Positions 8,011-46,297 of a stretch of 64,000 nucleotides of DNA are shown here, piece by piece. The DNA lies in NCBI GenBank assembly GCA_905178155.1, contig CAJINV010000016.1, positions 1,021,386-1,085,385 of the forward strand. The letters run 5' to 3'. A model generated the notes under the pieces. That model was not told the origin of the DNA. It saw nothing but the letters and a program-made list of their open reading frames with translations, and searched no databases. The position numbers and the translations under genes were made by a program. The stretch is from Amoebophrya sp. A120 (lineage: Eukaryota; Protista; Dinoflagellata). Numbering within the stretch: position 1 is the stretch's first letter; every line of letters begins with the position of its first letter.

Positions 8011-8666
8011 CAAGCGTTTTTCTTGTTTTGTGATGGAAAAGTAGAGCAACATGGTCGTGTGCGTAAGTATGCTGTGGGCAATCTCTGCATGATGTAGTTG
8101 CGCGCTCGTCCTTCTGTGCTAGTACTAGTAGTCCTGCCCATGGACGAGAATCATACTTACATGGTGGAAGTAAAACTGACAAAGCAGTAGAACATCTGTG
8201 TGCCACCTCGCCGCTAGCGATAGTATACTCCTGTTCATCGGAAAGAACACAAACAGCGAGGACTACCTCCCTCCCAGAGTAGACTGTGTGGCAGAACTGC
8301 CCAAGTGGTCCGAGACTCTGCGGCACCGCGGCCGCCTTTCGTGGCCGTGGTCTAGTGCAGGAGAGCGGACGGTCGTCGTGGTTTGCACTTGTTTTGACCA
8401 ACAAGAGTTCTAGAATTTCTACAGTGTGTTCCGCATCTTCGCCTCTTTGAGTTTGGTGTAGGTTTTCACATTGGTATGGCAAGCACTAGTTGTAGTTGGG
8501 AGGACGAACACGAAGAAGCACGACCAAAGTCGTCGTTGGGGAGAGCTGTTTGCGTTTTATGTTGAGAAATGCAGAGAGACATTCAATGTGTACAAGGTTG
8601 AGACCATCGAACGAAATACTTTATCAGAAAGGTTTTCGTCGGGCAAAACAAGTTCCAGTATAGTAC

Positions 8667-9437: not shown

Positions 9438-9605
9438 CGAGGACAAGGGCGTTTCTTCAGCATGGCCACACGTATCAGGTGGGCAACATTTCTGTTAGAT
9501 ATGCAATTTATTTGTACGTGCAGCTGCAGGTTTGCCATGCGGGGGTAATGAATTTGTCTTGCATAGAAGCACCGCAGAGCTTATGACTGGTCCAGGTACA
9601 GTCCG

Positions 9606-10061
9606 GTGCGCGTGCGGGGGAGGTCACCGGATCAACTTCGCGCAAGAATGACCACAAACTCGGAAAAGAGCGCGGTGGGACAAGAATTTGCTGTCAGAAC
9701 TTCTACACAGCAAAGACGACGAACAAGACCCGCCGGCGCGGCGGCAGGCGCAGGCGTCTGCAAGGAGACGGAAGAAGCCTTCGTGCCCTCTATCAAGAAG
9801 AAAGCGGTGACATCGTCCAGTCCGAAAAGCCCGGATCACGATGCGAGAGGAATTTTGGTAAAGACGGGGGCTGTTGCTACACCGTCCACATGTAGTAGGT
9901 CGACTTCCTTCTCGTCTTCCAGTAGCTCCTGTGCAAAGGAGAAGTTCAAGTTCTACTCGTCTTCGTACTTGTTCCCACCTGCTCCTCGTGCGGCTTTCTA
10001 CTTTCCGAGCGACGAGGACGAGAAAATAGTGCGGAAGATGGGACGAGCAGAGGAACAAAGT
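9606..10061 (+). pseudogene. 5' part of host ORF interrupted by the YR retrotransposon
   Basis: ...gag gaa caa agt (EEQS, ends 10061) joins aat gac ctc cag cag aca agg gaa atg (from 29695) in frame with ORF 29719-30480. Confidence 0.75.
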
Positions 10062-10229
10062 GGCCAACCCGTCTCCTGGGCGGCAAGGTATACTTGCTTT
10101 CTCCTGTAGTGTATTCACAAAAATGCTGTTTCAAAATAAATTTCGTATCAAAATAAATACAGTGATCCAAATTTGTAATAGCTCTTTTGTGAACCGGACG
10201 TGCCCACCGCACTGCCCGCAGTTTTGTTT
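10062..10229 (+). repeat. Split direct repeat A1 (left terminus)
   Basis: 168 bp, near-identical to 26300-26467 (starts ggccaacccgtctcctgggcgg, ends gcagttttgttt). Confidence 0.95.
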
Positions 10230-11014
10230 ATGCTTCGCGCTGAGCAATCTCGGGGTCCATCACATTAGAGGCCGGGCGGGCCATTGTGGCCGCGGCTTGG
10301 GCTTGCTCCGTCATGCCTCAACCTGCCTTCAAGGCGGGCCAAGCATGTCGTCTCCACGCCTGGGGCATGCAGTCAGTGGTCGACGTACGTTGCTAGTCGC
10401 AACTGCGTCGTGGGACGCCGGAACTGCAAGTAGCAGTACGGCGCCCCTGGCGGCCTCGTCCGGTTCCCAAACCGGGCGTGGGAAAAACGCCAAAGTGGGG
10501 GTACCTTAGTATCCCTGGAGCGGGCGGCCCGTAAACGGGACCCGACCCGGGTAGATCCTCGTGCAGGCCCCGACCTGCCGAGAAGAATCCCCGGAAGTGC
10601 CCGACTGGCACAGGACGTGTGGAAGTCCAACGTAGGCGTCTGACAAACGCCGGCAAAGGCTGACGGGGTCCTCCCTCCCCTCACCTGCGCCACTCAGGGT
10701 GAGCACAGCTCCCCGAAACCCCATTCCAGTGAGCCCCCACCCGCTCACACCGAGGCGTCTCTCCCTGTTGGAAGGGGAGGGGGCCTCACTGTCACTAGAG
10801 TCACGCGCTTGGGTTAATCTCAAGATTGCTTCGCGCAACCAGGCGCGTGCCTCAAAATTCCACGTGTAAAAGCGCCCCGGGCGCCGTGCGCCGCACGAAA
10901 AAAACGGCAAGGCAACGTGGGGCACCTCGCCCCACGGTGTGTGCCGCTCGTAAGAGCGGCTGTGTCTCTCCTCCGCGTAGGAGAGAAGCGTGGCGCCGAC
11001 AGGCACCACGCAAG

Positions 11015-11137
11015 ACGCGCGCGTGCACCTCGAGGCCACGATCACGCGTGCGTCTCGAAACGCGCGCGTGCGCCTCGAGGCCACGAGGCGCACGAGCACA
11101 CGCAGTGCGAGGTCACGCGCGCGCGTGCACCTCGAAA
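11015..11137 (+). repeat. Imperfect tandem repeat (cgcgtgcRYctcga units) in the element's CpG-rich 5' leader
   Basis: About four units of gcgcgtgcacctcgaggccacga-like sequence; repeated in the second copy at ~17251-17373. Confidence 0.7.
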
Positions 11138-11696
11138 CCCTGGCCGCGAGGCGGCAGGGGAACGGACTACGAGATGCAGCCGCACCGTAGTAGCCGCGTG
11201 TTCGTTTATGGTTGAAAATCGATCGACAGGACGTTGTGCATCAAGATTCGCTGCCTAAATGTCGGTCGTCGCAAGAAAGCTGTCGGTCGAGAGGTGATTG
11301 AGAATGGATTTTCGTACTTCAGAGACCGTTGCGACACGTACGCGAGCCGTAGAGCCGCAAGGACCTCGACGTCAAAGGATATGCGAAAATCGTACAACAG
11401 AAGGACGTTCAAAAAATCGTGGGCAGTACAACCCACGCCGATCCCTAGCAGTAAAGTCGTCCAGTAGATACTGATCGATCGTCGAACGACCATAGACACA
11501 AACCGCAGGCAGATAAAATCACATACAGGGCAGGAGCTTAAAGCACATTGCAAACCCACATAGTGCTAGCACTAGGCACTCTAGAGCGCGCTAGTTTGCA
11601 CAAAATTACAGCAATTAAGCACACTACCCAGTAAGAAGCTTTTGCTTGCCCCTAGCGAACAAAGCAAGTGCAACCCCAGAGCACAAAAAACCCCCA

Positions 11697-14600
11697 ATGG
11701 CGCAAGCGTACATCTTCGGAGGCGGGTCCCCCGACCCGCTGAGACTTCGACTGGAGGTACATCCGGACCTCTTCGAGAACACGCTAAAAGCGCGGGTGGC
11801 GGCAGCATCCGCGGGATGCGACCCAGAGCACCTGGACGTCCGCTGGAAGCAGGCCCTGGCCACGAGTAGAGGGCTAGACTGCATCATCTCCGACCTGGAG
11901 AATGGCGAGTTCCTGAACTTCGATTTGTGGGAAAACGCACCGCACGCGCAGCTGCCGCTGCCGGAGCACACAGTCGCGCACTACGTGCGATCCATCGTGG
12001 CCCTCACGTTGGTATACGAAAAATACAACTCCGTCGAGTTCGACCGTTTACCCTCGGAAAAACTCAGGAAGATGGCGGTGATGCACGGCCTGCAATCTGG
12101 CGGGAACAAAGCCGCGAGGCTGAACACCCTCCAGCTCGCCGCAGAGCAAGACCACCTGTATCAGTTCCCGCTGCCACTCTGCCCAGTCGTTACGGATGGC
12201 CTGACCATCCACGACATCACCCAAACGTCGATCCAGGTGGACGGCAACCCGGTCCCCGGACAAGCGGCGGGACCCGCCCTGCACCCCATTGTCTACCCGA
12301 ACGGAGACAACGCCGCGGCGTATCAGGCGGCCCAACAGGCGGCAGCAGCTGCAGCAGCGGCGCAACAGCAGGCAGCAGCCGCACAGCAGGCGGCGCAACA
12401 GCCCGCGGCGGCACAGGGCCCAGGACAGCAAGCGGCAGGTTCAAACACTCTGCTACTACAAGTGCTCGCTCACTCTCCCGCTCGGAGCAAGCTGCTCTTA
12501 CTTACAGTACAACGCTGCAACGTTTTGGAAAAAGTTGCAGGGGCCGCGGCCTGCGAGCTGCTTCTAACTACGCACGCAAGTGCCTGTAATATGTCAACCC
12601 ACAAAACTCACAGGTGGAGCAGCACAGGGTGCGGCAGGCGGGGCACCACCGCCCCCAGCGGTACAAGCGCAAGCCGCGGGAGCAGCTGCAGCTGCAGCAC
12701 CACCGGGCGGAGCAGCACAGGCACAAGCCGGAGGCGCAGGTACCAACTAGCGCCTCTTCGTGTAGCTATCCATACTGTCGCTTTTACAGCCATGACGCAG
12801 CCCCTAGCTAACGCATGACGAACAGCAACACAAATAACACACAGGTGCGCAAGCGCAGCAAGGGGGAGCAGCTCAGGCAGGAGCAGCAGGAGCACCCGCT
12901 GGCGCAGTCCAGGCAGCCGCGGCGGCCGGAGCAGGTATCTTGCTGTCGTCGCCACGAAGGGCCTTCTACATGCTCGAAATCACCTAAAGTCCTGCGCTAT
13001 CAAAATAAACGCGTCTCGTGCTGTCAAAATAAAAAGGCGCTGAGCAAGAGCGTAACTTGTAGCGTTTTCCCTTCCCCAATCGGGGCAAAAGTCCCCCGCT
13101 GCGTGTCTCGCAATGAAATTAACTCAACACCACAGGAGCGGGACAACAGCAAGGGCCACAGGCACAACAGGCGCAAAACCCGGCGCAGCAGGCACAAGCT
13201 GGGGGAGCAGCAGGCACAGCTTCTACAAGTCTGTCTTTGCCCTTCTGCATTTTCCAGAACTCTAGACCCGACTAGAGTACAGCTCTAGAGGACTTTAGAC
13301 CCCCGCAAGCACGTAATTTTGTGCGAATTTAGTCGGGGCTCCAGATCTGCAAAACCAAAGTAAATCCCAAACACCCAAACCACAGGAGCGAACGCCGCGG
13401 GACAACAAGGACAGCAGGCCCAGCCACCGCAGGCAGGAGCGCAAGCAGGTAACCTACCCATCCCGCCAGCAGCGGCCGCGGCTGCGGGGGCACAGTTACC
13501 AGTGGCAGGGCCACAGCAGCAGCAGCAACCGGTGGGAGCGCAAGCCCAGCAACAACAACCCCCGCAAGTACAGGCCCAGCAACAGCAGGCCCCGCCGCAG
13601 CAGGCGCAGCTGGGAGCACAGCCAGCTGGACAACAACAGGCCGCGCAACAGCAACAAGCCCCCGGACAGCAACAAGCTGGAGTACAGCAGGGTGGACAAC
13701 AACAGCCACCCCCGGCCGGACAGCAAAACCAAGGTGGACAAGCCCAGCAGCCACTGCTACCGCCCGTGGGGCAGCAGGCCCAGGCGCAGGGACAGCAGAA
13801 CCAAGGTGGACAAGTCCAACAGCAGCTGCAGCCCCCCGCGGTGCAGCAGAACCAGGGCGGACAAGTCCAACAGCAACCGCAGCTCCCCGCGGTGCAGCAG
13901 GCACAGGCGCAGGGACAGCAGCACCAAGGTGGACAGGCTCAACAGCAGCTGCAACCCCCCGCGATGCAGCAGGTCCAGGCCCAGGGACAGCAGAACCAAG
14001 CTGCCGGGGCGCAGCAACAATACGTCGTGATAAACGGCATGGCATACCCGGTCGCGCAACAACCGCAGCAACCGCAGCAACCACAGCGGCAACAGCAGCA
14101 AGGGGTTCAGCAATACGCAGTAGCGCACGCACCACCGCAACAAGGGCTACCCATGCCGAGGGTCGGAGGAACGCAGCCTCCGCTTCCACCGCCGCAGCAG
14201 CAACGGCAGGCGCAAGCACAGGCAAACGTCTACGGTGCGTTCAACGCAGGAGGGACGCAGAACACTAGTGCCGGTGGAGTCCACAACTTCGAACGGTACG
14301 CGGCAACGGCCCCGCCACCGACCAACAACACGCGGACCGACATGCACAATTTCCACAATTGGAGCGAAGACGAGAGGGCTCTGTACTTCGACTCCATGGT
14401 AAAGCGGGCAACGGGAACCGCGACGGGCGTGCAACTGCCGGAGGAGCCCGTCCTGCAACCTGTCAACGCCTACTGGCACATGCGGGATGAAACGCTTAAG
14501 CCCTTGCCGCGCAACCGCAGGCCGGATGATGACGCCGGGGCCGACCCCGGTTACTGGGTCATTACCTCCCAGAACAGACCGGTGAACTTGGAGTGCTTCC

Positions 14601-16327
14601 CGTTAGTCTGGATGTCCAGCCAGTACAAGCGACAGCAGTCGCTTCCAAGGGTGAGATCGAAAAACGCCGACGGCTCGTACACCAACGGCAAGTCATGGAA
14701 CGAAGACAGGGTGTACGAAGTGGAGTACATCTCGGATTTGCGAGATTTGTTGGTGTGCCACAACGCAACCGGTGCGCAGGTGCAGGTCAACATACAGAAC
14801 CTCACCTACATGTCGGAACACCTTTGGTTGGATACCGATTCGGTATTGTATGAATACCTCAGCAAGTTGGATCCGGAAGCAAGGCGGGCAGCCAAAATGG
14901 CCGTCCTCTGGGCGATGGCGCTCGGAATCAGAGACGAGCTCCAGCTGGTCTTGCGGGCCCTCCAGGAGGAAGAAAGCCTCACCACGAAGGGGGTACACAA
15001 CAAGGACACCCTGTACAAAAATACCCCGAAGCACTGGAACGGCGTCTCCTCGGACCTGGAGTGGTACATCAAAAACGGCAAGACAGTCGGCATCACGGAA
15101 GGGCAGGCGAAGTCCCTCGTCTACGAGATGCGCCGCATCATCGACAAAAAGATGACGACAGCCACCCCCAACATCACGCAAACGGACATCGAACACGTAC
15201 AAGTCGGCCACATCTATGCCTTTTGGCAATGATGCGTTGACGGAATTTTCGAAGTCAACGGGGTACAAAGCGCCCATCTCCCGAAAGGGGCTAACTTTGT
15301 GACGTCCTCCAGTCGAGCGGAGAAATTCCACCACATGTGCATCGTCGCCACGGTGCTCAACATGTACGACACAGTCGCGGGCGCTACCGCCGACCTGACC
15401 GGACTGCGGGACACGATAAACATCAAGTCGGATTATGAGTTTCAAATTCAAATTTTGCCATCCGTCATCTACTCGTTGGCGTCGAAGCAACCACCGAACA
15501 AGTCGTTGAGCTTGGGACTTTCCGAGGGCCAGGGTGGCAACGCCAGGACTTTCAAGTACGTGGTAGAAAAGGTCGCCACGGGTCGCTGCAGCGAGATCAT
15601 CAAGCAGAGACAGTTCTACTTCGCCTCGAACGGGCTCGGGGAAGCGAATCCGAATCCGGACAACCTCACTAGAGCGCAGAAACGCGCAGCAAAGCGCCGA
15701 GGCGAAGAGGCGGGTAATCCGAACCCGAAGCAGCAACGCAAGGCGTCCAGCAGCGACGAACCGATGTTCCCCAAAAGCCCGACCTTCGACCTGCCCAAGC
15801 AGCAGGCCAGCAGCTCCTCCTGGACGAAAAACGCAAACCAGTCCAAGATGGGGAAGCTTGATATCACTACCGCCAAGTACAAGAACGACTGGAACGCGAA
15901 GGACCCGTACTTCCAGCGCAAAATGAGCGCTCCAAAGTCAGTCATCCACGCGGGAAAAATGACGATGGTCTGCTCGGCGGCCGGCCTGGTGGAAGAACCG
16001 GGTATCTCGGCCTTAAACTGGCCGCTCAGCGTGTGCCGGGATTTCCACATGCAAGGATCTTCCTGCATCGGCGGTTGCAAAAAGTGGCACGACATCCCCG
16101 AGGAGTACAGGACGGACACGCAGTCTTGGTGGCACATCCTGAACATCCAAAGCGCCGTGGCCAGCAACAACTCCAAGAACCTTCAGCAGCTCCAGCCCTG
16201 CCTCCCCATGTCACCACCCGGGAACGGCGGGAAAGGCGGAAAAGGCAAGGGAGGAAAAGGCAAGGGCAAGAAGGGCAAGGGCAAGAAGGGCAAGGACAAG
16301 CAGGAAAAATCGGCCGAATACGAATAG
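11697..16327 (+). CDS. Gag-like ORF1, spliced (exons 11697-12438, 12614-12739, 12845-12934, 13136-13213, 13386-16327); Gln/Ala/Gly-rich middle, C-terminal CCCH-type Zn finger and GK-rich tail; in-frame TGA at 15230-15232
   Basis: Four phase-1 GT(GC)..CAG introns join all pieces in frame (960 aa to TGA, ~1325 aa if read through). CRDFHMQGSSCIGGCKKWH followed by GGKGGKGKGGKGKGKKGK. First ORF of the element. Fourth donor could instead be GT at 13229. Confidence 0.75.
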
Positions 16328-16775
16328 TCGAAGGTACACAATATAGCCACCCGCGGCAGCGGGGACATCAGCGACTAAATAGATAGTCAGCACAAGCCTA
16401 ATACTACCGTGAGCCACATAACATCGCGCGATACAAGAAAAGTTTGCCACCAATTTTGAAAATGCACGCACGTCAAATCTGAGAGCGATAAAGTAGCGCT
16501 ACTTCTGAAGGAGATAGCAAGTCGCGACCCTCTAACGGAACAGCTACGAACTAAGCTAGGGATCGGAAAGAGTATGGCGCCGCTCCAAAAAATGGCGTCG
16601 GGGAGTTCCGTTACAGCAAGAACCACTCAGGGTGTGGAAGTTTCCAAAATTGAGCATGCGTACGGAGCATGAAGCTCGCCCAAGCAGGTAGCAAGGATGA
16701 GATCCCCACAAAAGAGATCACATGCGTACAGAGATCGAGAAGCGTACAGACATAAAACGGATGAACGTAGATCGN

Positions 16776-19700
16776 ACCCGACCCGGGTAGATCCTCGTGC
16801 AGGCCCCGACCTGCCGAGAAGAATCCCCGGAAGTGCCCGACTGGCACAGGACGTGTGGAAGTCCAACGTAGGCGTCTGACAAACGCCGGCAAAGGCTGAC
16901 GGGGTCCTCCCTCCCCTCACCTGCGCCACTCAGGGTGAGCACAGCTCCCCGAAACCCCATTCCAGTGAGCCCCCACCCGCTCACACCGAGGCGTCTCTCC
17001 CTGTTGGAAGGGGAGGGGGCCTCTCTGTCACTAGAGTCACGCGCTTGGGTTAATCTCAAGATTGCTTCGCGCAACCAGGCGCGTGTCTCAAAATTCCACG
17101 TGTAAAAGCGCCCCGGGCGCCGTGCGCCGCACGAAAAAAACGGCAAGGTAACGTGGGGCACCTCGCCCCACGGTGTGTGCCGCTCGTAAGAGCGGCTGTG
17201 TCTCTCCTCCGCGTAGGAGAGAAGCGTGGCGCCGACAGGCACCACGCAAGACGCGCGCGTGCACCTCGAGGCCACGATCACTCGTGCGTCTCGAAACGCG
17301 CGCGTGCGCCTCGAGGCCACGAGGCGCACGAGCACACGCAGTGCGAGGTCACGCGCGCGCGTGCACCTCGAAACCCTGGCCGCGAGGCGGCAGGGGAACG
17401 GACTACGAGATGCAGCCGCACCGTAGTAGCCGCGTGTTCGTTTATGGTTGAAAATCGATCGACAGGACGTTGTGCATCGAGATTCGCTGCCTAAATGTCG
17501 GTCGTCGCAAGAAAGCTGTCGGTCGAGAGGTGACTGAGAATGGATTTTCGTACTTCAGAGACCGTCGCGACACGTACGCGAGCCGTAGAGCCGCAAGAGC
17601 CTCGACGTCAAAGGATATGCGAAAATCGTACAACAAAAGGACGTTCAAAAAATCGTGGGCAGTACAACCCACGCCGATCCCTAGCAGTAAAGTCGTCCAG
17701 TAGATACTGATCGATCGTCGAACGACCATAGACACAAACCGCAGGCATATAAAATCACATACAGGGCAGGAGCTTAAAGCACATTGCAAACCCACATAGT
17801 AGCTAGCACTAGGCACTCTAGAGCGCGCTAGTTTGCACAAAGTTACAGCAATTAAGCACACTACCCAGTAAGAGACTTTTGCTTACCCCTAGCGAACAAA
17901 GCAAGTGCAGCCCCAGAGCACAAAAAACCCCCAATGGCGCAAGCGTACATCTTCGGAGGCGGGTCCCCCGACCCGCTGAAACTTCGACTGGAGGTACATC
18001 CGGACCTCTTCGAGAACACGCTAAAAGCGCGGGTGGCGGCAGCATCCGCGGGATGCGACCCAGAGCACCTGGACGTCCGCTGGAAGCAGGCCCTGGCCAC
18101 GAGTAGAGGGCTAGACTGCATCATCTCCGACCTGGAGAATGGCGAGTTCCTGAGCGTCGATTTGTGGGAAAACGCACCGCGCGCGCAGCTGCCGCTGCCG
18201 GAGCACACAGTCGCGCACTACGTGCGATCCATCGTGGCCCTCACGTTGGTATACGAAAAATACAACTCCGTCGAGTTCGACCGTTTACCCTCGGAAAAAC
18301 TCAGGAAGATGGCGGTGATGTACGGCCTGCAATCTGGCGGGAACAAAGCCGCGAGGCTGAACACCCTCCAGCTCGCCGCAGAGCAAGACCACCTGTATCA
18401 GTTCCCGCTGCCACTCTGCCCAGTCGTTACGGATGGCCTGACCATCCACGACATCACCCAAACGTCGAACCAGGTGGACGGCAACCCGGTCCCCGGACAA
18501 GCGGCGGGACCCGCCCTGCACCCCATTGTCTACCCGAACGGAGACAACGCCGCGGCGTATCAGGCGGCCCAACAGGCGGCAGCAGCTGCAGCAGCGGCGC
18601 AACAGCAGGCAGCAGCCGCACAGCAGGCGGCGCAACAGCCCGTGGCGGCACAGGGCCCAGGACAGCAAGCGGCAGGTACAAACACTCTGCTACTACAAGT
18701 GCTCGCTCACTCTCCCGCTCGGAGCAAGCTGCTCTTACTTACAGTACAACGCTGCAACGTTTTGGAAAAAGTTGCAGGGGCCGCGGCCTGCGAGCTGCTT
18801 CTAACTACGCACGCAAATGCCTGTAATATGTCAACCCACAAAACTCACAGGTGGAGCAGCACAGGGTGCGGCAGGCGGGGCACCACCGCCCCCAGCGGTA
18901 CAAGCGCAAGCCGCGGGAGCAGCTGCAGCTGCAGCACCACCGGGCGGAGCAGCACAGGCACAAGCCGGAGGCGCAGGTACCAACTAGCGCCTCTTCGTGT
19001 AGCTATCCACACTGTCGCTTTTACAGCCATGACGCAGCCCCTAGCTAACGCATGACGAACAGCAACACAAATAACACACAGGTGCGCAAGCGCAGCAAGG
19101 GGGAGCAGCTCAGGCAGGAGCAGCAGGAGCACCCGCTGGCGCAGTCCAGGCAGCCGCGGCGGCCGGAGCAGGTATCTTGCTGTCGTCGCCACGAAGGGCC
19201 TTCTACATGCTCGAAATCACCTAAAGTCCTGTGCTATCAAAATAAACGCGTCTTGTGCTGTCAAAATATAAAGGCGCTGAGCAAGAGCGTAACTTGTAGC
19301 GTTTTCCCTTCCCCAATCGGGGCAAAAGTCCCCCGCTGCGTGTCTCGCAATGAAATTAACTCAACACTACAGGAGCGGGACAACAGCAAGGGCCACAGGC
19401 ACAACAGGCGCAAAACCCGGCGCAGCAGGCACAAGCTGGGGGAGCAGCAGGCACAGCTTCTACAAGTCTGTCTTTGCCCTTCTGCATTTTCCAGAACTAG
19501 ACCCGACTAGAGTACAGCTCTAGAGGACTTTAGACCCCCGCAAGCACGTAATTTTGTGCGAATTTAGTCGGGGCTCCAGACCTGCAAAACCAAAGTAAAT
19601 CCCAAACACCCAAACCACAGGAGCGAACGCCGCGGGACAACAAGGACAGCAGGCCCAGCCACCGCAGGCAGGAGCGCAAGCAGGTACTCAGCTACCTAGT

Positions 19701-20205
19701 GTTGCGTTAGATTAGGCTTCGAGAAGCGCGTAAGAGTCTGCCCTTGTTGAAACTTCGTTGCGCCTGCCATTCATTGGCGGCCCACCACCAACTGCCAACA
19801 ACTCAATAAAAACAACACACAGGTAGCCTACCCATCCCGCCAGCAGCGGCCGCGGCTGCGGGGGCACAGTTACCAGTGGCAGGGCCACAGCAGCAGCAGC
19901 AACCGGTGGGAGCGCAAGCCCAGCAACAACAACCCCCGCAAGTACAGGCCCAGCAACAGCAGGCCCCGCCGCAGCAGGCGCAGCTGGGAGCACAGCCAGC
20001 TGGACAACAACAGGCTGCGCAACAGCAACAAGCCCCCGGACAGCAACAAGCTGGAGTACAGCAGGGTGGACAACAACAGCCACCCCCGGCCGGACAGCAA
20101 AACCAAGGTGGACAAGCCCAGCAGCCACTGCTACCGCCCGTGGGGCAGCAGGCCCAGGCGCAGGGACAGCAGAACCAAGGTGGACAAGTCCAACAGCAGC
20201 TGCAG
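16776..20205 (+). repeat. Second, slightly diverged copy of element 5' leader + gag N-terminus (matches 10540-~13830)
   Basis: Collinear with SNPs, ATG at 17934; bounded by a single N (16775) and a 100-N gap; carries an extra 139-bp intron 19684-19822. Confidence 0.9.
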
Positions 20206-20339
20206 NNNNNNNNNNNNNNNNNNNNNNNNNNNNNNNNNNNNNNNNNNNNNNNNNNNNNNNNNNNNNNNNNNNNNNNNNNNNNNNNNNNNNNNNNNNNNNN
20301 NNNNNATGCTGATAAACTAACAAAACACTTGAAACACAG

Positions 20340-21167
20340 GCCACGCACGTTAGGAAAATCTACCAGCAATTCGGTCGGCACAGCTACCAGGCGGAACGCC
20401 GTCGCGTCGGCTTCCTTCGGGCCCAGAGGGACGCGGTCCACGAAGCCTACAAGGAAACGCCGAGGGCACGCATCTACCACGACTACAGCTCAGACCCCAA
20501 CACCGGGAGGCACTGGGGTCCCAAACCCACGGCGCTGGACATCGCAAACGTGCACAAGGCGCAGTTCTATAAATTTCCGAACTACCATATCCGGGTGATG
20601 ATGCACGAGCAGGACAAAAGCGGGCCACTCTTCCCGGAAGACGAGTGGTCGCCGGAAGAGCTCACGCGCCATCTACAAAGCCATGTGATGGCCCTGATTA
20701 AACCCCTGCGCGACCGCAGCACCTGTGAGTCACTCCACCCCGACAAATACCGTAACTACATGGACCCCGTGGAGTACCATGGACTTCGAGACAAGACGGG
20801 GGGCCCATGGGACAAGGGCGACGGCGCGGCCAAGGACGAGCCGCGACTCCTGCACCGAGCGTGGGCACCCACACCAAAGGAGCAGGACGCACTGGCCTCG
20901 TACCCCTCGTACGGATTCGGGCAAACGGAGCTCGAGAAGTTTAACGTGCGGGTCTCCTTCAGCCCGTGCGCCGAACAGGCGGGGGTAAGCTGGCAGGGCA
21001 TGAGATCCCGCATCCACATTACCTGCCTAGTCACCGCGTGCCGCACGCTCGAAAAGCAACAGGGTCAGCTCGGCGACGATGAACCAATGCTCTTGCCCCT
21101 GGAGCTGCATGTGTCGAAATTTCCCGAGAAGAAGCCGACCTGGGGTTTCCCTGACGGCTACGACTGA
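20340..21167 (+). CDS. Element accessory ORF 2 (3' exon; unknown function)
   Basis: Open from 20340, in frame with 20550-21167; preceded by ctaac and an aaacacag acceptor like the gag introns; 5' exon lost in the gap. Confidence 0.6.
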   Translation, partial: ATHVRKIYQQFGRHSYQAERRRVGFLRAQRDAVHEAYKETPRARIYHDYSSDPNTGRHWGPKPTALDIANVHKAQFYKFPNYHIRVMMHEQDKSGPLFPEDEWSPEELTRHLQSHVMALIKPLRDRSTCESLHPDKYRNYMDPVEYHGLRDKTGGPWDKGDGAAKDEPRLLHRAWAPTPKEQDALASYPSYGFGQTELEKFNVRVSFSPCAEQAGVSWQGMRSRIHITCLVTACRTLEKQQGQLGDDEPMLLPLELHVSKFPEKKPTWGFPDGYD

Positions 21168-21657
21168 GGTATAAGCTAGAACAGGACCTATTTAGAACTG
21201 AGAAAGTCACAACTTGAGCAATAACTCGTGCTAAGGAGCTAACCAATGACAGATAGAAGTCGACAACTTAAAGTCAGAACGTAGTGCAGGAACGGCACAA
21301 CTATAAGACACACGCTAAGGAGTTGCTTCTGACCCAAGAGAAACAAAAAGTCCACACCACCCTAGTAGTGCAGAACTGCAGCTGCGTAACATGCCAGAAG
21401 CGCGCGCCTGTGTCGCCTGTTCAATCACAAAAAGAAAGCAAGTTGCCAGATCCGCACAAATCTGCCTTGAAATGAGCAACAGGTCAGGATCCTTCCCAGC
21501 TAGGTTCTGGTAGAAACTCGACAACATGAACGAGATCACGCTTAGGACTGAAAGCACAGCAACGCACTAGGCCAGCGGTATAAGTAGCAGATAAAGCCCA
21601 GCCCAGCAGCGCGCTCAACATAGCACAAGTATACAACAAACCCACAGGGAACATAGA

Positions 21658-22065
21658 ATGGGAAACCAAGTGAGCTGTTGCATGTGCTGGGAGGAGCAGC
21701 TCTGCTGCTTCCTCGCCATCCTACCAAATGGACAAAAAGTCGCTCTACCGTATGACTCTGTATGGATCCAAAAAGATGGACGCATCCGCACGGTAGGACT
21801 AGGAAGCATGGTCTGGGATACGTCGACAAACGCGCAATCGCTGGAAAGCAAGAAGCCCGTCTTCCCCGTCGCGCGCCTCCGCGCAGAGCTCCTCATCGGC
21901 ACACCGGGGGGATATGCCGAGGGCCACGCCATCCCGGACGCGGACAAAAATCGGGCAACAGCAGAGATTACGCAACTCGTCCGGGAGCGCCTGACCAAAG
22001 GGGAACAGAAAGAGCACTACACCGCATTGCAAAAGCGAGACTACGACGAACTCAGGTGCAAATGA
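21658..22065 (+). CDS. Element accessory ORF 3 (135 aa, unknown)
   Basis: ATG-started ORF with element-like codon usage; Cys-rich N-terminus MGNQVSCCMCWEEQLCC. Confidence 0.45.
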   Translation: MGNQVSCCMCWEEQLCCFLAILPNGQKVALPYDSVWIQKDGRIRTVGLGSMVWDTSTNAQSLESKKPVFPVARLRAELLIGTPGGYAEGHAIPDADKNRATAEITQLVRERLTKGEQKEHYTALQKRDYDELRCK

Positions 22066-22120
22066 TTCGCATGTACAAACAGCAAGAGCGCGCATAGGCC
22101 ATAGCTTGGACTGACTCGCA

Positions 22121-22819
22121 ATGCAACAAAAAACAAACAGGTGCTATATGGCCGACAGCGTCCGCCAGTGGACTAGTGTGCAAATCCGCACCCACCTCGT
22201 GCTCTACCACCGCCTTACCAAGGGTCGCGACCTCACGGAGGCAAGGTATTTCCGGCTGCGCGCGTTCCTCAACGGGCTCGATATGCGGCTGGAGGCTAAC
22301 ATCAACGGCATGCATCACACAAGCTTCCAGCACACGCTCACTGGCCAAACCAACCCCCACGACGCGCATCCCGCGGGATATTGGAAAGACACAGTGGAGC
22401 AATTCCAGTTCGTCTCGCCAGACGCGATGAAGTTATGGTGCGAACAGAACAAGCCCTCGTGGAACACGACGCGGGACCTGGGCCTCCACCGGCTCATGAT
22501 CCGCATCAAACGTGAGCACAGCAACCACATCGAGCAGGACGGCCTGCAGCAATGGGGACCCAGGGAACACACAGGCCTCCGCATGCTTGCCGCGGGAGAA
22601 AAGTCCGCCACGTACATTCCATCCCCGGACCCCCTCCACGGCAAAACCCGGTGGAGGGACCACGCCGAGGGACCGCACAAGCCGAATGAGGTCCCGGGCT
22701 ACAACTCCTACTGCCTCGCCTGCCGGCTCATGGCTTATAACCATTGCCCGACGCCCTGTGGAAGTGAGGAGTGCACACATTGCAGTCGCTGTGTGGACTG
22801 CAACCACGGCTGGGACTAG
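22121..22819 (+). CDS. Element accessory ORF 4 (232 aa) with C-terminal Cys/His cluster (putative Zn finger)
   Basis: C-terminus CLAC...HCPTPCGSEECTHCSRCVDCNH; C/G-ending codon bias. Confidence 0.6.
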   Translation: MQQKTNRCYMADSVRQWTSVQIRTHLVLYHRLTKGRDLTEARYFRLRAFLNGLDMRLEANINGMHHTSFQHTLTGQTNPHDAHPAGYWKDTVEQFQFVSPDAMKLWCEQNKPSWNTTRDLGLHRLMIRIKREHSNHIEQDGLQQWGPREHTGLRMLAAGEKSATYIPSPDPLHGKTRWRDHAEGPHKPNEVPGYNSYCLACRLMAYNHCPTPCGSEECTHCSRCVDCNHGWD

Positions 22820-23119
22820 TCAGATCGGACAGCCAAATGACTAGAAAAGTCATGCACTGAGCGAACGAGCAAGCCTAACAATAGAGGTAGCAACACCAGC
22901 AGAGAGCACCACTAGAAGCCACACAGTAGCCCATATATAGTAAACAGACGGGCGAGGTCGCTAATACGGCCCCCGTAGTGGAGGCTAGCTGAGTGCTCAC
23001 CCCAGCAGACCATAGCGCCCAGCATACATATGCCGCGCACCATAGTAGAGACTCGCTATCGGCACGACAGCAAGCACCACTAGAGAAAAAGCTAGCACGC
23101 GTAAAAAAGGAAAAACAAG

Positions 23120-24907
23120 ATGAACGCACGGGACGCCTCTGTTATACTCCCGCCACAGGGGGTAAACCCGCGCAACATGTACAAACCACCGCAGCCACAA
23201 ACGGCGCCTGCGCAAATTGTCCCAACAACGCGACAAGCGAGCGACACCGCCCTTACGAGGACCTTCACAACACTGCAGGCGGACCTGGAGGCGCAGGCCG
23301 TACAGACAAGCACACTGAGCACCCACGCGCAGCTACACGAGGCCCTGCGAAAATACATCAAGGCCACCTGGCCCAACTTTGGGGACAACGAGCCAGCAAA
23401 CCTCAAGCAAGTGGAGCTGTTCTGCCTCGACAAGGTACAAAAACAGGAACACAGGAGCGCGGATGTAATCTTCACCCAGCTCTTGCACTTCATGATCAAC
23501 CCGCCCCTCGATGAGGACGGACGGCAGCCGGTACTGCTCCAGAACGCCCCCGCATTTGCGCCCCTGGCATTCGAAAAAGCGAAGGAGAGAGTGCAGAAGG
23601 CATGTTCAGCCACGAAGTGCCCGGTCACCAAAGCCTACCCGCTGTCGCTCCACACATTGCGACAGGTGGCCTTTCCGGAACGGGCGGCGCTCATGCTGTG
23701 GTATCTAGTGGGGTGCAGATCAGCAAGCATCCAGGCCATCGAGCCTGGCGACGTCAAAATCCACACCGCGCCGGGCACAAGCGTACCCGTCAGGGTGAGC
23801 GTCTTCATCCGGTCGGATAAAGTCTGCACGGCAACATCGCGCACGGTGCTGATAGGGTGCAACTGCTTCGACGATCCCACATGCTGCCTGCTATGTGAGA
23901 AAGAACACCACGACGCAATCGACAAGCTCAAGGACAGCCACGGCAAAACCTGGCTTCCCCAACTAGCACACTACGGCCTGGGGATCACGGAGCATAGCGT
24001 GAGAAGAGCGCATGCCCTCGAAGCGAGGAGACGCATGCAAAGCGGCAGGCATTGCAACCTCGACCAGTTCCTCCGCGATAGGGGGTGGCAGCTTCGCTCC
24101 ACTTTCGCAGACTACGCGTGCGAACTCCAGGATTTCGTCCACATAAAGTTCCCGCCCATTGGCGCCACGTGGTGGCCGGCGGATCCACTGGACGACTCCA
24201 CCAGCTCAAAATCCATGGTCTTCAGAGACGTCAACAAAGTCACCAATATCACCCGCGCAGAGAACATTGGCACGCTGGCCACCGCCCCCTCCAACTGTCT
24301 CCCGGTGGCCCGCTCCGCCAAACAGACACGAGCCCACGGCGGCCGGTCGCCAAAGCCACCAACCCCGAAGGCAGTTCGAAAGGCAACCGAAGGCGAAAAG
24401 GTCAGCAAATACACCAACCTCGCACGGGGAAAGCCGGCGCTCACCAGTACACTCCGGCAAAACAAGGAGGGAAAGCTAGTCCCCACGCTGCCGACCGTGG
24501 TCAAGAAAAGCTGGGAGGAGCTGGCGGGCCACACCAAAGAGAAATACGTGTACCGACCCAACGACGCCCCAAAGGAGCACCGCGAGGAAGCCTGGGCAGA
24601 ACGGCAACGGCGAGGGGTCGGAACGGCGCAAGAACCTGCAAGGCGCAACAAAAACTACAAACCCTGGCACGATCTACCCCTCCCAGAGCGGGCAAAGCTG
24701 CGAGACGGGGCCGGCGCAAGACACCAGCCCCGCGAGAAGATCGAGTATTACCTACAGGACATAAATCGTGAACGGGTGGCAAACCACCGCGACACGATCT
24801 ACAGGCAGCACGCGGATAAGTCCGGCTTCTACCGAGACAAACCGGATGCAGGCGAGCTCGAGCAGCTACAAAAGGCGGAGACACAGCCCCCTGCGGGACC
24901 TGCGTGA
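23120..24907 (+). CDS. Tyrosine recombinase (DIRS-type YR) with basic C-terminal extension
   Basis: Catalytic motif order R (VGCRSAS), K (RSDK), HxxR (HSVRR), RGW, Y (STFADY). Confidence 0.88.
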   Translation: MNARDASVILPPQGVNPRNMYKPPQPQTAPAQIVPTTRQASDTALTRTFTTLQADLEAQAVQTSTLSTHAQLHEALRKYIKATWPNFGDNEPANLKQVELFCLDKVQKQEHRSADVIFTQLLHFMINPPLDEDGRQPVLLQNAPAFAPLAFEKAKERVQKACSATKCPVTKAYPLSLHTLRQVAFPERAALMLWYLVGCRSASIQAIEPGDVKIHTAPGTSVPVRVSVFIRSDKVCTATSRTVLIGCNCFDDPTCCLLCEKEHHDAIDKLKDSHGKTWLPQLAHYGLGITEHSVRRAHALEARRRMQSGRHCNLDQFLRDRGWQLRSTFADYACELQDFVHIKFPPIGATWWPADPLDDSTSSKSMVFRDVNKVTNITRAENIGTLATAPSNCLPVARSAKQTRAHGGRSPKPPTPKAVRKATEGEKVSKYTNLARGKPALTSTLRQNKEGKLVPTLPTVVKKSWEELAGHTKEKYVYRPNDAPKEHREEAWAERQRRGVGTAQEPARRNKNYKPWHDLPLPERAKLRDGAGARHQPREKIEYYLQDINRERVANHRDTIYRQHADKSGFYRDKPDAGELEQLQKAETQPPAGPA

Positions 24908-24988
24908 CGACCCGCCGGCGCGCAAGGCGTCCGAACCCTGCGAATGGGGGAACTCAGGGCGTGACGTCCACTATCGAATGGGGAAGAG

Positions 24989-25420
24989 AGCTGGCACCAT
25001 GCCGGCGGATCGAAAAAAGAGAAAATGATGAGCCCTTCTAGAATGTGAACTGCGAAAGCTGTAAGACAACGCAGGAAGGGCAGCTCCACTGAGCGAATCG
25101 TCATGAGGCGACACGAGCCGGCACCGCGGCGGAATGTGTTCGCGCTCCTCTAGAAAGAGCAGAGCTGAAGTTCCACTGAGATCACACGGATCTCACGCAA
25201 ACTGGTCCTAAAGCAATCTGCCATACTCCCGCGAGATCAAGGGGGCCCACGGCTCCAATCTCGGCGATCCTCCTGCCGCTAAGCTCTTAGTTCCGCCATC
25301 GATCAAGGTGGGCGCGAGTAAACCAAAACACTAACACGCTAAACACACAGACATCAACGAAACGCAGTCGATCCGTTAGTCGATCCATTTAGCAGAAGCT
25401 AGATCCTAATGTGTCCAAAC
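24989..25420 (+). repeat. Repeat B (partial, runs into N gap)
   Basis: Matches the start of 25814-26299 and 29208-29694. Confidence 0.9.
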
Positions 25421-25813
25421 NNNNNNNNNNNNNNNNNNNNNNNNNNNNNNNNNNNNNNNNNNNNNNNNNNNNNNNNNNNNNNNNNNNNNNNNNNNNNNNN
25501 NNNNNNNNNNNNNNNNNNNNNNNNNNNNNNNNNNNNNNNNNNNNNNNNNNNNNNNNNNNNNNNNNNNNNNNNNNNNNNNNNNNNNNNNNNNNNNNNNNNN
25601 NNNNNNNNNNNNNNNNNNNNNNNNNNNNNNNNNNNNNNNNNNNNNNNNNNNNNNNNNNNNNNNNNNNNNNNNNNNNNNNNNNNNNNNNNNNNNNNNNNNN
25701 NNNNNNNNNNNNNNNNNNNNNNNNNNNNNNNNNNNNNNNNNNNNNNNNNNNNNNNNNNNNNNNNNNNNNNNNNNNNNNNNNNNNNNNNNNNNNNNNNNNN
25801 NNNNNNNNNNNNN

Positions 25814-26299
25814 GCTGGCACCATGCCGGCGGATCGAAAAAAGAGAAAATGATGAGCCCTTCTAGAATGTGAACTGCGAAAGCTGTAAGACAACGCAGGA
25901 AGGGCAGCTCCACTGAGCGAATCGTCATGAGGCGACACGAGCCGGCACCGCGGCGGAATGTGTTCGCGCTCCTCTAGAAAGAGCAGAGCTGAAGTTCCAC
26001 TGAGATCACACGGATCTCACGCAAACTGGTCCTAAAGCAATCTGCCATACTCCCGCGAGATCAAGGGGGCCCACGGCTCCAATCTCGGCGATCCTCCTGC
26101 CGCTAAGCTCTTAGTTCCGCCATCGATCAAGGTGGGCGCGAGTAAACCAAAACACTAACACGCTAAACACACAGACATCAACGAAACGCAGTCGATCCGT
26201 TAGTCGATCCATTTAGCAGAAGCTAGATCCTAATGTGTCCAAACCAAAAGTAACAACGTCTGATCTAAAAATGATCTCAGGTACCGACCGACCGGGAGA
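25814..26299 (+). repeat. Repeat B1 (internal), abutting A2
   Basis: 486 bp near-identical to 29209-29694; ends gaccgaccgggaga. Confidence 0.95.
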
Positions 26300-26321
26300 G
26301 GCCAACCCGTCTCCTGGGCGG
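26288..26321. other. Putative YR recombination site at the internal B1/A2 (circle-type) junction
   Basis: ccgaccgggaga-ggccaacccg-tctcctgggcgg: 12-bp inverted arms (10/12 match) around a 10-bp spacer; the element ends meet at the arm/spacer boundary. Confidence 0.55.
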
Positions 26322-26467
26322 CAAGGTATGCTTGCTTTCTCCTGTAGTGTATTCACAAAAATGCTGTTTCAAAATAAATATCGTATCAAAATAAATACAG
26401 TGATCCAAATTTGTAATAGCTCTTTTGTGAACCGGACGTGCCCACCGCACTGCCCGCAGTTTTGTTT
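26300..26467 (+). repeat. Split direct repeat A2 (internal)
   Basis: 168 bp near-identical to 10062-10229; RT ATG follows at 26488. Confidence 0.95.
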
Positions 26468-26487
26468 CGCCCTTAGATGCCACACCC

Positions 26488-29247
26488 ATGAGCCCGAAAA
26501 AACTGGAAGACCTCACCGCCGCCGAAGCGGCGGCGCCAGACACAAGCCAACAGGCATCCATGCAGCGCACGGCCTGGGAGATGCTACACGTCACAAGAGA
26601 CTACGTGCGAGCGGCTCGAATGGCGAGTAGCGTCACAGTCCCGAGCGACACGGTCGCGAACATAAAGCAGATGAAGGCAAATCGGACAGCCTGGGTAGCC
26701 CGAGTCAAAACGGCCATAGCCAAAATCCGGAAAATCGGAAAAGACACAAGAAAAGAAAACGCCGAGCGACACAGCACAGCAGAGCCACACATACAACAGG
26801 CACTAGGATGGGGCGCCAACAAGCGCAACCTGGTCGCCCTTCAGCGGCTCATAGAATGGACACACCACAAGGACATAACCCTCCCAAGCCACTTACTCCG
26901 AGGGGTGCGCACGATTGGCAACGCAGACACGACGGGGGGAGTCTGGGACCTCGACCCCACAGTCACGGCCATCGACCCCCAAGACGTGCAAGACTTCCTC
27001 GATGCTGAGGCCACACTCCTCAAACTCCAGGACGACCTTCCGCTCACGTCCTCCTTCGCGCCGGAGGTACTCCGGAAGCTCCTACAGGGCTGCAGGGAAA
27101 TGGTGGAGAAAGGACTTTACAAGCCGATAGAAAGAAGAAACCTCAAAGCGCGGCCCAGCCCAGCCTTCCCAAAAGTCGAGCTAGAGAAGATCCGCCAGAT
27201 CATCGACTCTAGAGCGCAGAACGTGTGCAGTCGGCTAGTCGAGAAAGTGCAAATCAAAGGCACGCGCACGATCAACGAGATCCTAGAAGCCTTCATGAGG
27301 CCAATAGGGAGAGAGGACGCCCACGCCCTCCCTAGCAGCGTGTCAGCAAAGGAAACCTGGCGGGACACGGCCGAGACTCTGGCACAGGTAGCTGCGGAAA
27401 AGAGTACCACACTCCCAAGCCAGCCCGGCTCGGAACCGCGCCAGCTCGAGCGGGCCCACATCCTCGAAGAGGTGAAGCAATGGAACGCACAGCTAGCAGA
27501 CCACCAAGGGGGAGGGGTCATCCCAGAAATGGGCACGAAGGACTTCGAAAAGTACTACTACGCTTTCGGATGCCTCGACCCCAAGCTCAACGGCATCGCA
27601 TTCTTCGACCCCGACCAGCGGTCATGGCAGTGCGTCGAAAGCTACGTCCTCAACATGGGAAACACCCACTCGGTGCCAGGAGGTACATACATGACCCACA
27701 GGCACGCAACCGCCTCCCCGGGCGGGATAAAAGTACGGGCATGCGCAATTCGCGAAAACACGTAAGCCACGCCTCACAAATCAAACCTGACCTAAAAAAC
27801 AAAAACAGCCTGCCGCGTATCGGAAGCCATACGGACCATACACCAGGCGGGGGGTGGCGTGTCGAGTCTGTATATCGATGACGCTATGCTCTACGGCACC
27901 GACCGTGAGACGTTCAACCTCTGTCGGGACCTCTACCTTGCTGTCGTCGAAGCCCTAGGCATCCCGTTAAGCAAAAAAGCAGCGGGCAACCAAGCATCCT
28001 GCGACAACATCCCCGGAGGAACGCGCGACTTCGTGCGAGCACTAGGAATACGGTATGTGTGGATACGGGACCGGGCGGGCCGCCCCGCCCGACTCTTCTC
28101 CGTAGTGCCGCGCGACAAAGTAGCCTCCGCGCAGCGCGACTGCGACAAGATACTGGCGGCCCACAGCGAAAAGGGAGGTAGAATCCAGCAAAAGGACATC
28201 CAAAAACTCCTTGGCATGGCCCAGTACGTGATATGCAACACAAATCGAGCGGGGGCGGAATTCGTCCGCCATCTGTACCCATGGGCCTCGGATGACTACT
28301 TCCAGGCCAACATCACGTGTCGCAGTCTGCGCAAGGCACTCGCCACGGCCGTAACCACTCTGAGGGCGCTGATTGAGCATCTGCCTCCCTACGAGCACAT
28401 CTACCGAGTGCAGAGGGTTAACTTCCTGTATCTCGACGCTAGCGGCGCCAAAACCCCGGACGCCCCGTGCCTCGCGGACCGGGGGCCCAAGGAGCCGCCA
28501 CGACTTGGGGGCATACTAGTCACCGCCGACGGGAAAGTGAAGGCCTTTACATACCCCCTGCCGGAGGGGCACGAACTTGCCACGTGCGACATAATGACGC
28601 TGGAAACGCTGACGGTGCGACTAGCCCAGCACCTCTACAGCGAGGATATGCGCGGCGCGCTTTCCATGGTGTCCGTTGACAACGTGGTGGAGCTCTTCAC
28701 GCTCGTGAAGCTTAGCTCCCGGCAAAAAAGGGTGTGCAACGTAGCGAACCGCGTCGCCGTGAAAAACCAGGAACTCGGGGCCCGATGCTGGTACCGGTAC
28801 ACCAATACCGCCAGGAACCCGGCCGACGCCTTCAGCCGCAAGGACTACCTGCAGGCCGCGCTCAACTTTTGGCGCCCCGATGAGCTCGCGCACAAGAAAA
28901 ACCACCCAGAGGACCCGGATTTCCTGGCAAAGCAGGCCAAACCCATCGACCCGCACGAGATTTTTCCCGACCGCACAAAGCTACCCTTTGACCCGGTCAG
29001 AGACACAACGGCCCAGGCTGCAAGGCACCGCACCTGGAAGGAGCGCTCTCCAGCACTCACAGGCCAGAACATTCTGGACCTGCCTGACCGGGCATTGGAC
29101 ATGCTCACGATGAGCACACAAGAAGAAGCCACGGCCGCTCTCGGCAGTGGCGGGGCAAGCTCGCGCCTACCAGACGCCTCGCGCGTAAAACGCCCCAGCG
29201 TGCAGGAAGCTGGCACCATGCCGGCGGATCGAAAAAAGAGAAAATGA
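26488..29247 (+). CDS. Reverse transcriptase / RNase H (exons 26488-27682, 27809-29247; ~877 aa)
   Basis: RT motifs TKDFEKYY, VLNMGNTHSVP, LYIDD; RNase H motifs YLDASG, LETL, VDN, NPADAFSR; 126-bp GT..AAAAACAG intron 27683-27808 with an in-frame stop joins the two ORFs. Confidence 0.9.
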
Positions 29248-29694
29248 TGAGCCCTTCTAGAATGTGAACTGCGAAAGCTGTAAGACAACGCAGGAAGGGC
29301 AGCTCCACTGAGCGAATCGACATGAGGCGACACGAGCCGGCACCGCGGCGGAATGTGTTCGCGCTCCTCTAGAAAGAGCAGAGCTGAAGTTCCACTGAGA
29401 TCACACGGATCTCACGCAAACTGGTCCTAAAGCAATCTGCCATACTCCCGCGAGATCAAGGGGGCCCACGGCTCCAATCTCGGCGATCCTCCTGCCGCTA
29501 AGCTCTTAGTTCCGCCATCGATCAAGGTGGGCGCGAGTAAACCAAAACACTAACACGCTAAACACACAGACATCAACGAAACGCAGTCGATCCGTTAGTC
29601 GATCCATTTAGCAGAAGCTAGATCCTAATGTGTCCAAACCAAAAGTAACAACGTCTGATCTAAAAATGATCTCAGGTACCGACCGACCGGGAGA
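29208..29694 (+). repeat. Split direct repeat B2 (right terminus); overlaps last 13 codons of RT/RH
   Basis: 487 bp near-identical to B1; begins agctggcaccatgccggcggatcg (AGTMPADRKKRK*). Confidence 0.95.
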
Positions 29695-30480
29695 AATGAC
29701 CTCCAGCAGACAAGGGAAATGGAAATGGCCTCCAGCTTCGATCGAGCTGCAGAGGGAACGAATGAGAAGGCTGACCTTTATTTTGCCGATAGAACAAACG
29801 AGAAAACTCCAGACGCTGCGGCTTCCACTCTCGTAACGGCCCGTCCGGGAGGTTCAGCTTCTCGTTTGCAGGCCAGGAGTTGCACTACAAAAACTTCTTT
29901 TTCAGGCACAAGAACGCGGAGTCGGAGAAAGTATAACGACGCCAGCAACATCAAGAACTTCTTGAGTGGCACAGCAGCTGCGGATCGTCGTGCGTCTGCA
30001 TCGGCATTAAGTACAACTGCGGTGCTCGACAGCACCATTCCGGTAATGATTCCCGTGTCTGCTTGCAAAAGTCCGGCATTTCTTGTAGCAGGCAGGAGCA
30101 CCTCGACATCAACTTCGTCGTGCAGTAAATGCACATCAAGAACATCAGCGCAGGAAATGTTGAGCCGCATGCTGCAGCGCCTCTCGCCGGCCAAGCTGTC
30201 CCATCGAGTCGCGGCCGCTGCCGCCGCACCGTTCGTCGTAGACAGAAAAAAATCTTCTTCTTCTGCGTCGCTTGACGGTCGGAAAGAGACCACGGTGGCG
30301 GCGAGTGGTGCAGCTCCTGGCACTGCCGCAGGAGCGGCCTCGGGCGGTGGGATTGTGAGCCAGTCGCACAGTAGCAGCTCGTCCTTCTCTGCTTCGGCCA
30401 TCGAACGACAAGCGGAGCGAAACCGGGCGTTGGCACTTGCCTGGGCAAACCGGCGAAAAGAGGTATATCTGTGTACATAG
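29695..30480 (+). pseudogene. 3' part of host ORF interrupted by the retrotransposon
   Basis: In frame with 9606-10061 across the empty site; same Ser/Ala-rich composition. Confidence 0.7.
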
Positions 30481-46175: not shown

Positions 46176-46297
46176 GGCATCCCGCTTGGTTGATGTCTCT
46201 ACGATCCGGGACCAAGACGTCCTTGCCCTCTTTCCTTCGATCACGCCATAGGACGTCGATCGGGTGGTTGACTACGAGATTGGTAGGACGATAGGAA

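Follow-up and report, generated by a model that had tools for sequence, protein, structure and literature searches.

A multi-copy tyrosine recombinase retrotransposon of Amoebophrya sp. A120 with its reverse transcriptase behind the internal repeat junction and a likely in-frame exon across that junction

A stretch of 64,000 nucleotides of the genome of Amoebophrya sp. A120 (assembly GCA_905178155.1, contig CAJINV010000016.1, positions 1,021,386 to 1,085,385; the window) contains, between positions 10062 and 29694, a tyrosine recombinase (YR) retrotransposon in which repeats A and B seem to bound two halves, the first with a gag-like gene and YR and the second with the reverse transcriptase/RNase H (RT/RH) gene. 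This locus raises the question of whether the halves form one element, and of how an RT gene lying behind the internal B|A junction, inside an element that interrupts a host coding frame, could be expressed and tolerated. The element is real and belongs to the YR retrotransposons of the order DIRS; it is young, is present in several copies and differs in structure from all four named groups. It is fairly probable that it is a single split-direct-repeat retrotransposon with the layout A-gag-YR-B-A-RT/RH-B, that its halves are linked in about four copies, and that its B|A junction is an in-frame exon that likely lets the host splice the element out.

Repeat mapping bore out the first-pass annotation of this DNA, which had placed A at 10062 and 26300 and copies of B ending at 26299 and 29694. 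The two 168-bp copies of A are 98% identical, and the terminal B (487 bp) is 99.8% identical to the 486 bp of the internal B that are visible past an assembly gap (coordinates in Table 1). The RT/RH gene is located, as had also been claimed, as a whole between the internal B|A junction and the terminal B with its ATG right after A2: the first in-frame ATG stands 21 nt past A2, and the final 40 nt of the gene overlap B2. B1, A2, RT, B2 and the host flank form one gap-free stretch. When 10062-29694 is deleted (10061 joined to 29695), a single open host frame results and no target duplication is seen; among 5000 random joins of host DNA, 130 stayed open over an equal length. The element crosses three N runs, and the 393-N gap at 25421-25813 is bridged by no run contig. 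Two irregularities, both probably assembly artefacts, complicate the first half. The segment 10530-13831 is duplicated at 16766-20205 with 98.7-99.5% identity, flanked by N runs at 16775 and 20206-20305, and this duplicate is probably a contig of another element copy that was scaffolded in. An additional truncated copy of B (24989-25420) lies upstream of the 393-N gap. Once the duplicate and the gaps are subtracted and B1 is counted a single time, the element measures about 15.3 kb plus an unseen link.

The linkage of the halves was read from contig depths in two DNA runs, X1 and X2, which come from one sample and are perhaps the source of the assembly; depths are relative to the single-copy flank and, contig depth being no copy number, were used as rough within-run ratios. 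In X1 they amount to 8.1 for A, 8.0 for B, 4.5 for the B|A junction, 4.0 for YR and 3.8 for RT, and in X2 to 7.8, 6.1, 4.1, 3.1 and 2.5-3.1, respectively, so that A:B:junction:YR:RT is near 2:2:1:1:1, which fits about four linked copies, with solo halves rare or absent. The contigs include three left and three right flank ends, and the junction, slightly deeper than the flanks, may leave room for one tandem copy or for free circles. B1 is most likely a single 487-bp copy doubled in the assembly, because B has the depth of two copies in each element and the contigs show neither an additional path into B nor another A-to-B joint. A real third copy of B was rejected on the same grounds: the depth of B in both runs stays below the 12 expected if such a copy were general.

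A metagenome scan gave six loci (L001 to L006), five of which hold RT. The most informative, L001 (JACKZZ010005587.1, 13.8 kb, no N), encodes an RT 31% identical to that of the window and presents, in order, a gag-like frame, YR (3296-5008), B (5319-5767), RT (6054-8402), B again (8518-8966; both copies 449 bp) and an acidic host frame in the same direction; its left end lies outside the contig, so that A1 is not visible there. The order YR-B-A-RT-B is a property of the lineage, because gap-free L001 repeats it and a gene model of Amoebophrya AT5.2 (P0002), in which YR is fused to the following RT, also runs YR then RT. The concern that the scaffolder had misplaced the RT segment across the 25421-25813 gap is largely answered by L001 and by the in-frame rejoining of the host flanks. 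The earlier proposal of a new lineage whose RT has its own A2-driven transcript stands in its first part, the same order in L001 pointing to a distinct lineage; an A2-driven transcript is not the best reading, because A has a splice donor near its beginning, at nt 27, and the RT start is closely preceded by an acceptor. At 6029-6200 of L001, the ATG just past the candidate acceptor is one base off the long RT frame, either because this copy carries a frameshift or because the start of the predicted protein P0005 was mis-called. Of the remaining loci, L002 and L004 are linear RT-only fragments, uninformative on layout, and L006 was dropped as a non-relative (a 26-residue match).

Evidence that the junction acts as an exon comes from a third run, X3, which is probably RNA (a tool's guess). 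There the host flank reaches a depth of 30 and the element is nearly absent. One of its contigs, contig 18, starts with nine letters of A plus a shared AG (A nt 16-26), followed by the 19 letters that close B and then by 606 letters of host sequence, with no difference. The word spanning this join is absent from the window, and the join is the expected product of the donor at 10088 (or 26326) and the acceptor at 29675; the DNA contigs of X1 and X2 at the right flank show the plain, unspliced end of B. The spliced remainder, 26 + 19 = 45 nt, is stop-free in three frames and keeps the host frame open, suggesting that the element is likely removed from host messenger RNA (mRNA) in frame, leaving a 15-amino-acid scar. 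Contig 18 begins exactly 30 letters ahead of the host flank, as is expected in a 31-mer graph when a joined piece can be extended in more than one way; the other extension is probably a second spliced insertion. A word-index protein search gave no annotated host protein in which the 15-residue scar might be visible.

The same arrangement recurs in L001, where the acceptor lies 12-13 nt before the end of B and the donor about 27 nt into A, giving 39 nt in total. The pattern of acceptor, exon and donor over the junction was defined on the window, L001 being an independent test; it arose in 37 of 4000 resampled sequences for the window and in 28 of 4000 for L001, and with a length divisible by three in 15 and 14 of 4000, respectively. 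Pattern matches were also seen in L003 (48 nt) and L005 (39 nt), and were rejected as evidence (1289 and 1793 of 3000 resampled sequences); L004 has a 29-nt match. Four other flank ends, known as 30-letter loose ends and read by hand, carry acidic codons in the direction of the element, and two of three left flanks end in GA, as B does. Compared with what is expected of introners, the window element has splice sites near both ends and L001 has corresponding sites at its junction, use in RNA is represented by one joined contig of a probable RNA run, and copies in different exons by three flank pairs, the other two of which are known from 30-letter loose ends alone.

By analogy with models for the DIRS order and for DIRS-1 (as set out in part of PMC7192593), an unspliced RNA running from A1 to B2 would be reverse transcribed, the ends of the element would be rebuilt on the internal B1A2 copy, and YR would integrate the product at a B|A junction. 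Integration would thereby divide the mini-exon, leaving its donor at the left end of the element and its acceptor at the right, and the host could use this pair to splice the element out. The mRNA for RT could arise through the internal copy of the exon, either by a splice from A1 to B1 that skips gag and YR or by a start in B1; the A2 donor would then be spliced to the acceptor at 26476, removing most of A2 (26326-26476) and placing the mini-exon in frame with RT.

Several observations weigh against this account. The spliced join was seen in one contig of one run, with nine distinguishing letters and an RNA nature that is only guessed, and contig 18 covers the right-hand join and not that of the upstream host exon with A1. 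A and B share AGGTA at the join, which makes a DNA deletion by microhomology formally possible. The internal junction is covered by nothing from X3 and by one piece of B from run X5, and neither a form of the RT mRNA nor the two-step splice was seen among these contigs. For L003 and L005, matches to the exon signature do not exceed what chance would give, and two of the frames of one candidate exon in these loci contain stops. The gag-like gene of this copy carries an in-frame TGA. Contigs built from 31-mers cannot phase across A or B, so that the order in other copies is unseen, and the ratios on which linkage rests are contig depths in two runs of a single sample. Finally, the idea of a segmented element keeps some life through two of the five related RT loci, which are closed RT-only contigs.

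An element with linked halves might instead keep the junction splice sites only for its own expression, as a shared leader exon to gag, YR and RT, its removal from host mRNA being a by-product. The acceptor that immediately precedes RT, both in the window and in L001, speaks for this, as does the richness of the element in introns of spliceosomal type; it is nevertheless unlikely, given that such a use needs neither a length divisible by three nor stop-free frames, which are present in both mapped junctions, nor sense insertion in coding frames, which is seen at the window site, at the L001 site and in the four hand-read loose ends. More improbable still is a segmented retroelement, in which A-gag-YR-B and A-RT-B would be copied and integrated separately, each as a unit resembling one with long terminal repeats (B-A-RT-B redundant in B, A-gag-YR-B-A in A), and would stand in tandem here. 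This possibility, also raised by the first-pass annotation, is favoured by the closed RT contigs without YR (L003, 3523 bp, and L005, 3949 bp, both circularly closed), by many relatives on contigs only slightly longer than the RT gene, and by the ability of the DIRS-1 RT to work in trans, as described in part of PMC7192593. It is not supported in this genome, where the depth of the B|A junction is at least that of YR or RT in both DNA runs and only three flank pairs exist among the contigs.

Both mapped elements, moreover, share one order with RT last, and an RT loop also arises when an assembler closes B-A-RT-B after pruning the other branch, or by recombination between copies of B. The L003 and L005 loops may represent RT circles in free form, tandem arrays or products of the assembler. 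In both circular contigs the RT frame is interrupted by a deletion or by short insertions, some of which have introner-like inverted repeats, and this also counts against segments that move by themselves. That the RT contig was simply set behind an unrelated gag-YR contig over the 25421-25813 gap is very improbable: the three N runs, the duplicated gag block, the doubled B and the unbridged gap make such an artefact conceivable, but the flanks rejoin in frame, B1-A2-RT-B2-flank is gap-free, the halves share A, B and depth, and L001 gives the order without gaps. The preferred interpretation, one linked element whose junction is an exon for the host, can be taken further, to a distinct superfamily in marine parasitic alveolates in which the junction is an in-frame exon, insertion occurs in sense in disordered coding regions, a 15-kb intron is removed leaving 13-15 codons, RT is made through the same splice sites, and the RT half is shed as a 3.5-4 kb circle, half-way to a segmented retroelement. 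This extension is possible and rather doubtful.

The RT/RH protein has a predicted structure of high confidence (predicted local distance difference test, pLDDT, 91), with cauliflower mosaic virus, Ty3 and retroviral RTs and RNase H as top Foldseek matches. Pfam named no family for the RT or the YR protein. The RT piece has 72 relatives at E values up to 0.001, the nearest named ones coming from Amoebophrya A120 (67% over the query), AT5.2 and A25; weak matches to RT or RNase H families were found in 6 of 33 relatives, and the alignment conserves the RT motifs, YIDD and the acidic residues of RNase H. A methyltransferase domain was not seen, as there was no Pfam match to one in RT or its relatives and the alignment of the relatives stops shortly after RNase H. 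Single-protein sequence searches of PDB gave no meaningful match, and an RT profile reached the RT of human immunodeficiency virus only at E 0.002. In a quick tree, built without named reference elements, the window RT clusters with proteins of Amoebophrya and L001; no RT relatives were present in the viral contigs or prokaryote genomes searched. Run X3 contains contigs about 85% alike to RT at 26898-26984 and 28780-29046, at depths of 3 and 12, and by this sequence similarity a family related to this RT seems to be present there.

The identity of YR rests on Atlas scores of 0.96-0.98 to phage-integrase clusters, including an ALOG/phage-integrase cluster; the phage-integrase family is carried by 27-32% of the members in three of the matching Atlas clusters and by 86% in one. 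The catalytic R, K, HxxR, W and Y are kept across three relatives, with the exception of an H to Q change in L001. Word-index protein searches gave no relatives of YR, and a structural model made without an alignment (pLDDT 39.5) was unusable.

Published elements are compared here through the parts of the cited papers that concern them. The window element has an RT with RNase H (by motifs and fold), a tyrosine recombinase in place of a DDE integrase, and A1, B1A2 and B2 terminal repeats with an internal end-to-start junction and a clean empty site, all features of the order DIRS. The order gag-YR-RT, which the first-pass annotation gave as known from kinetoplastid VIPER/TATE, is described for them in PMC6681497 and PMC12278014. 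These VIPER-like elements of the order DIRS share with the window element a gag-like-YR-RT/RH order, split direct repeats and no target duplication, and no methyltransferase is seen here; they differ in that their YR and RT frames overlap and B1, A2 and B2 all lie at the 3' end. In the window, at least 1.2 kb of B and A separates YR from RT (YR ends at 24907 and RT starts at 26488; 5008 and about 6030 in L001), B1A2 is upstream of RT, and RT fills the interval between A2 and B2. The premise that split-direct-repeat elements keep all open reading frames upstream of B1A2 did not hold, as the internal repeats lie between methyltransferase and YR in nematode Pat1 and Kangaroo (PMC4157794). These nematode-form, PAT-like elements resemble the window element in having an internal repeat pair between coding regions and a catalytic gene in the second half, which is YR in their case, with RT and methyltransferase in the first, and RT/RH in the window. 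Of the features of the PAT-like group (Pat1, Kangaroo, Toc), the window element shows split direct repeats, and neither a methyltransferase after RNase H nor a YR downstream of RT. Ngaro (PMC8547959, PMC3783388) likewise has split direct repeats, YR and no methyltransferase, but follows the scheme A1-[ORFs]-B1A2B2 with every gene upstream of the internal repeats, which is not the case here.

Two further comparisons concern dinoflagellates. SymbioDIRS-Dnmt3 of Symbiodinium (PMC5890265) also has a dinoflagellate host, A/B split repeats, a divergent RT missed by Pfam and a shuffled YR/pol order, but it is arranged as A-coding region-B-A-B and has a cytosine methyltransferase, neither of which is true of the window element. 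DIRS-classed introners of Polarella glacialis (fam3, fam5) and Lasiodiplodia (fam3) (PMC12130899, supplementary file 8) are YR-type retroelements spliced out as host introns, two of them in a dinoflagellate; according to the table rows, they are short introns of a few hundred bases, with their own 5' site and a co-opted 3' site, or both co-opted, whereas the window element is a full 15-kb element with both splice sites inside its ends and 45 nt left in frame. Among the matching rows of supplementary file 8 of that survey there is no DIRS-classed Amoebophrya family, files 13 and 14 being outside the search; in the portions covered, the word 'recombinase' is absent from the text and supplement of the Amoebophrya genome paper (PMC7789003), and the preprint bioRxiv 10.64898/2026.05.21.726589 has no bearing on layout. 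The literature covered, which did not extend to subscription YR reviews, the original PAT/Kangaroo papers or Repbase, describes neither an element whose RT lies past the internal junction nor a junction exon that is in frame. The two-compartment layout is thus already known, with YR second, from Pat1 and Kangaroo; what appears to be new is RT in the second compartment and the junction mini-exon, although a prior description may exist.

The replication and gene expression of split-direct-repeat elements have so far been almost untested, and if the junction doubles as an exon, integration, tolerance by the host and expression of RT would all depend on a single 40-nt sequence. If true, an autonomous full-length retroelement would also supply new introns and short insertions in coding sequence, in a group already known to have undergone intron invasion. 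With this element, the arrangements of gag, YR, RT and internal repeat in the order DIRS come to four, and its family, invisible to Pfam, has probably been missed in annotations.

Table 1. Coordinates in the window of the element, its repeats and genes, and the flanking host frame.
Feature	Coordinates	Strand	Remarks
Host coding frame, upstream of insertion	9567..10061	+	One open frame with 29695-30480 at the empty site
Repeat A1, left element end	10062..10229	+	First 26 nt exon-like; splice donor AG|GT at 10087/10088
Gag-like gene	11697..16327	+	Q/A-rich N-terminal part, four intron-like segments; splice model open in frame, 960-965 aa
Duplicate of leader and 5' part of gag	16766..20205	+	Between N runs; 139-nt GT-AG intron at 19684-19822
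Accessory open frame, 283 aa	20316..21167	+	Start lost in gap; in multi-copy unit, depth equal to YR in X1 and X2; no Pfam match
Accessory gene, predicted 359 aa	21658..22819	+	After one intron (22056-22140); begins MGNQVSCC, Cys-rich end; no Pfam match for either piece
Tyrosine recombinase (YR), 596 aa	23117..24907	+	R200/K235/H293xxR296/W324/Y333; from Atlas and relatives' alignment
Repeat B1, assembled twice	24989..26299	+	24989-25420 and 25814-26299, around 393-N gap
Mini-exon over B|A junction, 45 nt	26281..26325	+	Acceptor CAG| ahead, donor |GTATG behind; no stop in any of three frames
Repeat A2	26300..26467	+	Candidate acceptor TAG|ATGCC downstream at 26476; CAG|ATGCC counterpart in L001
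RT/RNase H, 877 aa	26488..29247	+	One GT-AG intron, 27683-27808; YIDD at 420; RNase H D608/D689/D738
Repeat B2, right element end	29208..29694	+	Splice acceptor CAG|G at 29675/29676; final 19 nt exon-like
Host coding frame, downstream of insertion	29695..30480	+	One open frame with 9567-10061 at the empty site

The label 'gag' is positional, the gag-like gene having no Pfam match. Its in-frame TGA (15230-15232) parts two long frames and either arose by mutation in this copy or serves for read-through; the 364 aa beyond it end in a CCCH-type finger, a motif that likewise closes the first open reading frame of L001. The intron of the second gag copy is precisely missing from the first (at 13449), and such a presence/absence difference fits passage through a partly spliced RNA. 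Between 11697-12434 and 17934-18671 in the two gag copies, all seven base differences alter an amino acid. Pfam scans gave nothing useful for nine frames of the element plus four more, and no integrase or protease family in the nine.

The MGNQVSCC start of the second accessory gene resembles an N-terminal lipid-anchor motif; L001 is without a counterpart of this gene between gag and YR. In the spacer past the first accessory frame (21196-21341), one copy in X1/X2 has a diverged 144-nt segment of equal length. Outside the element, at 36000-54500 of the window, the host exons are separated by direct and inverted repeats of 40-150 nt that fall into several families and resemble the repeated introns reported for Amoebophrya.

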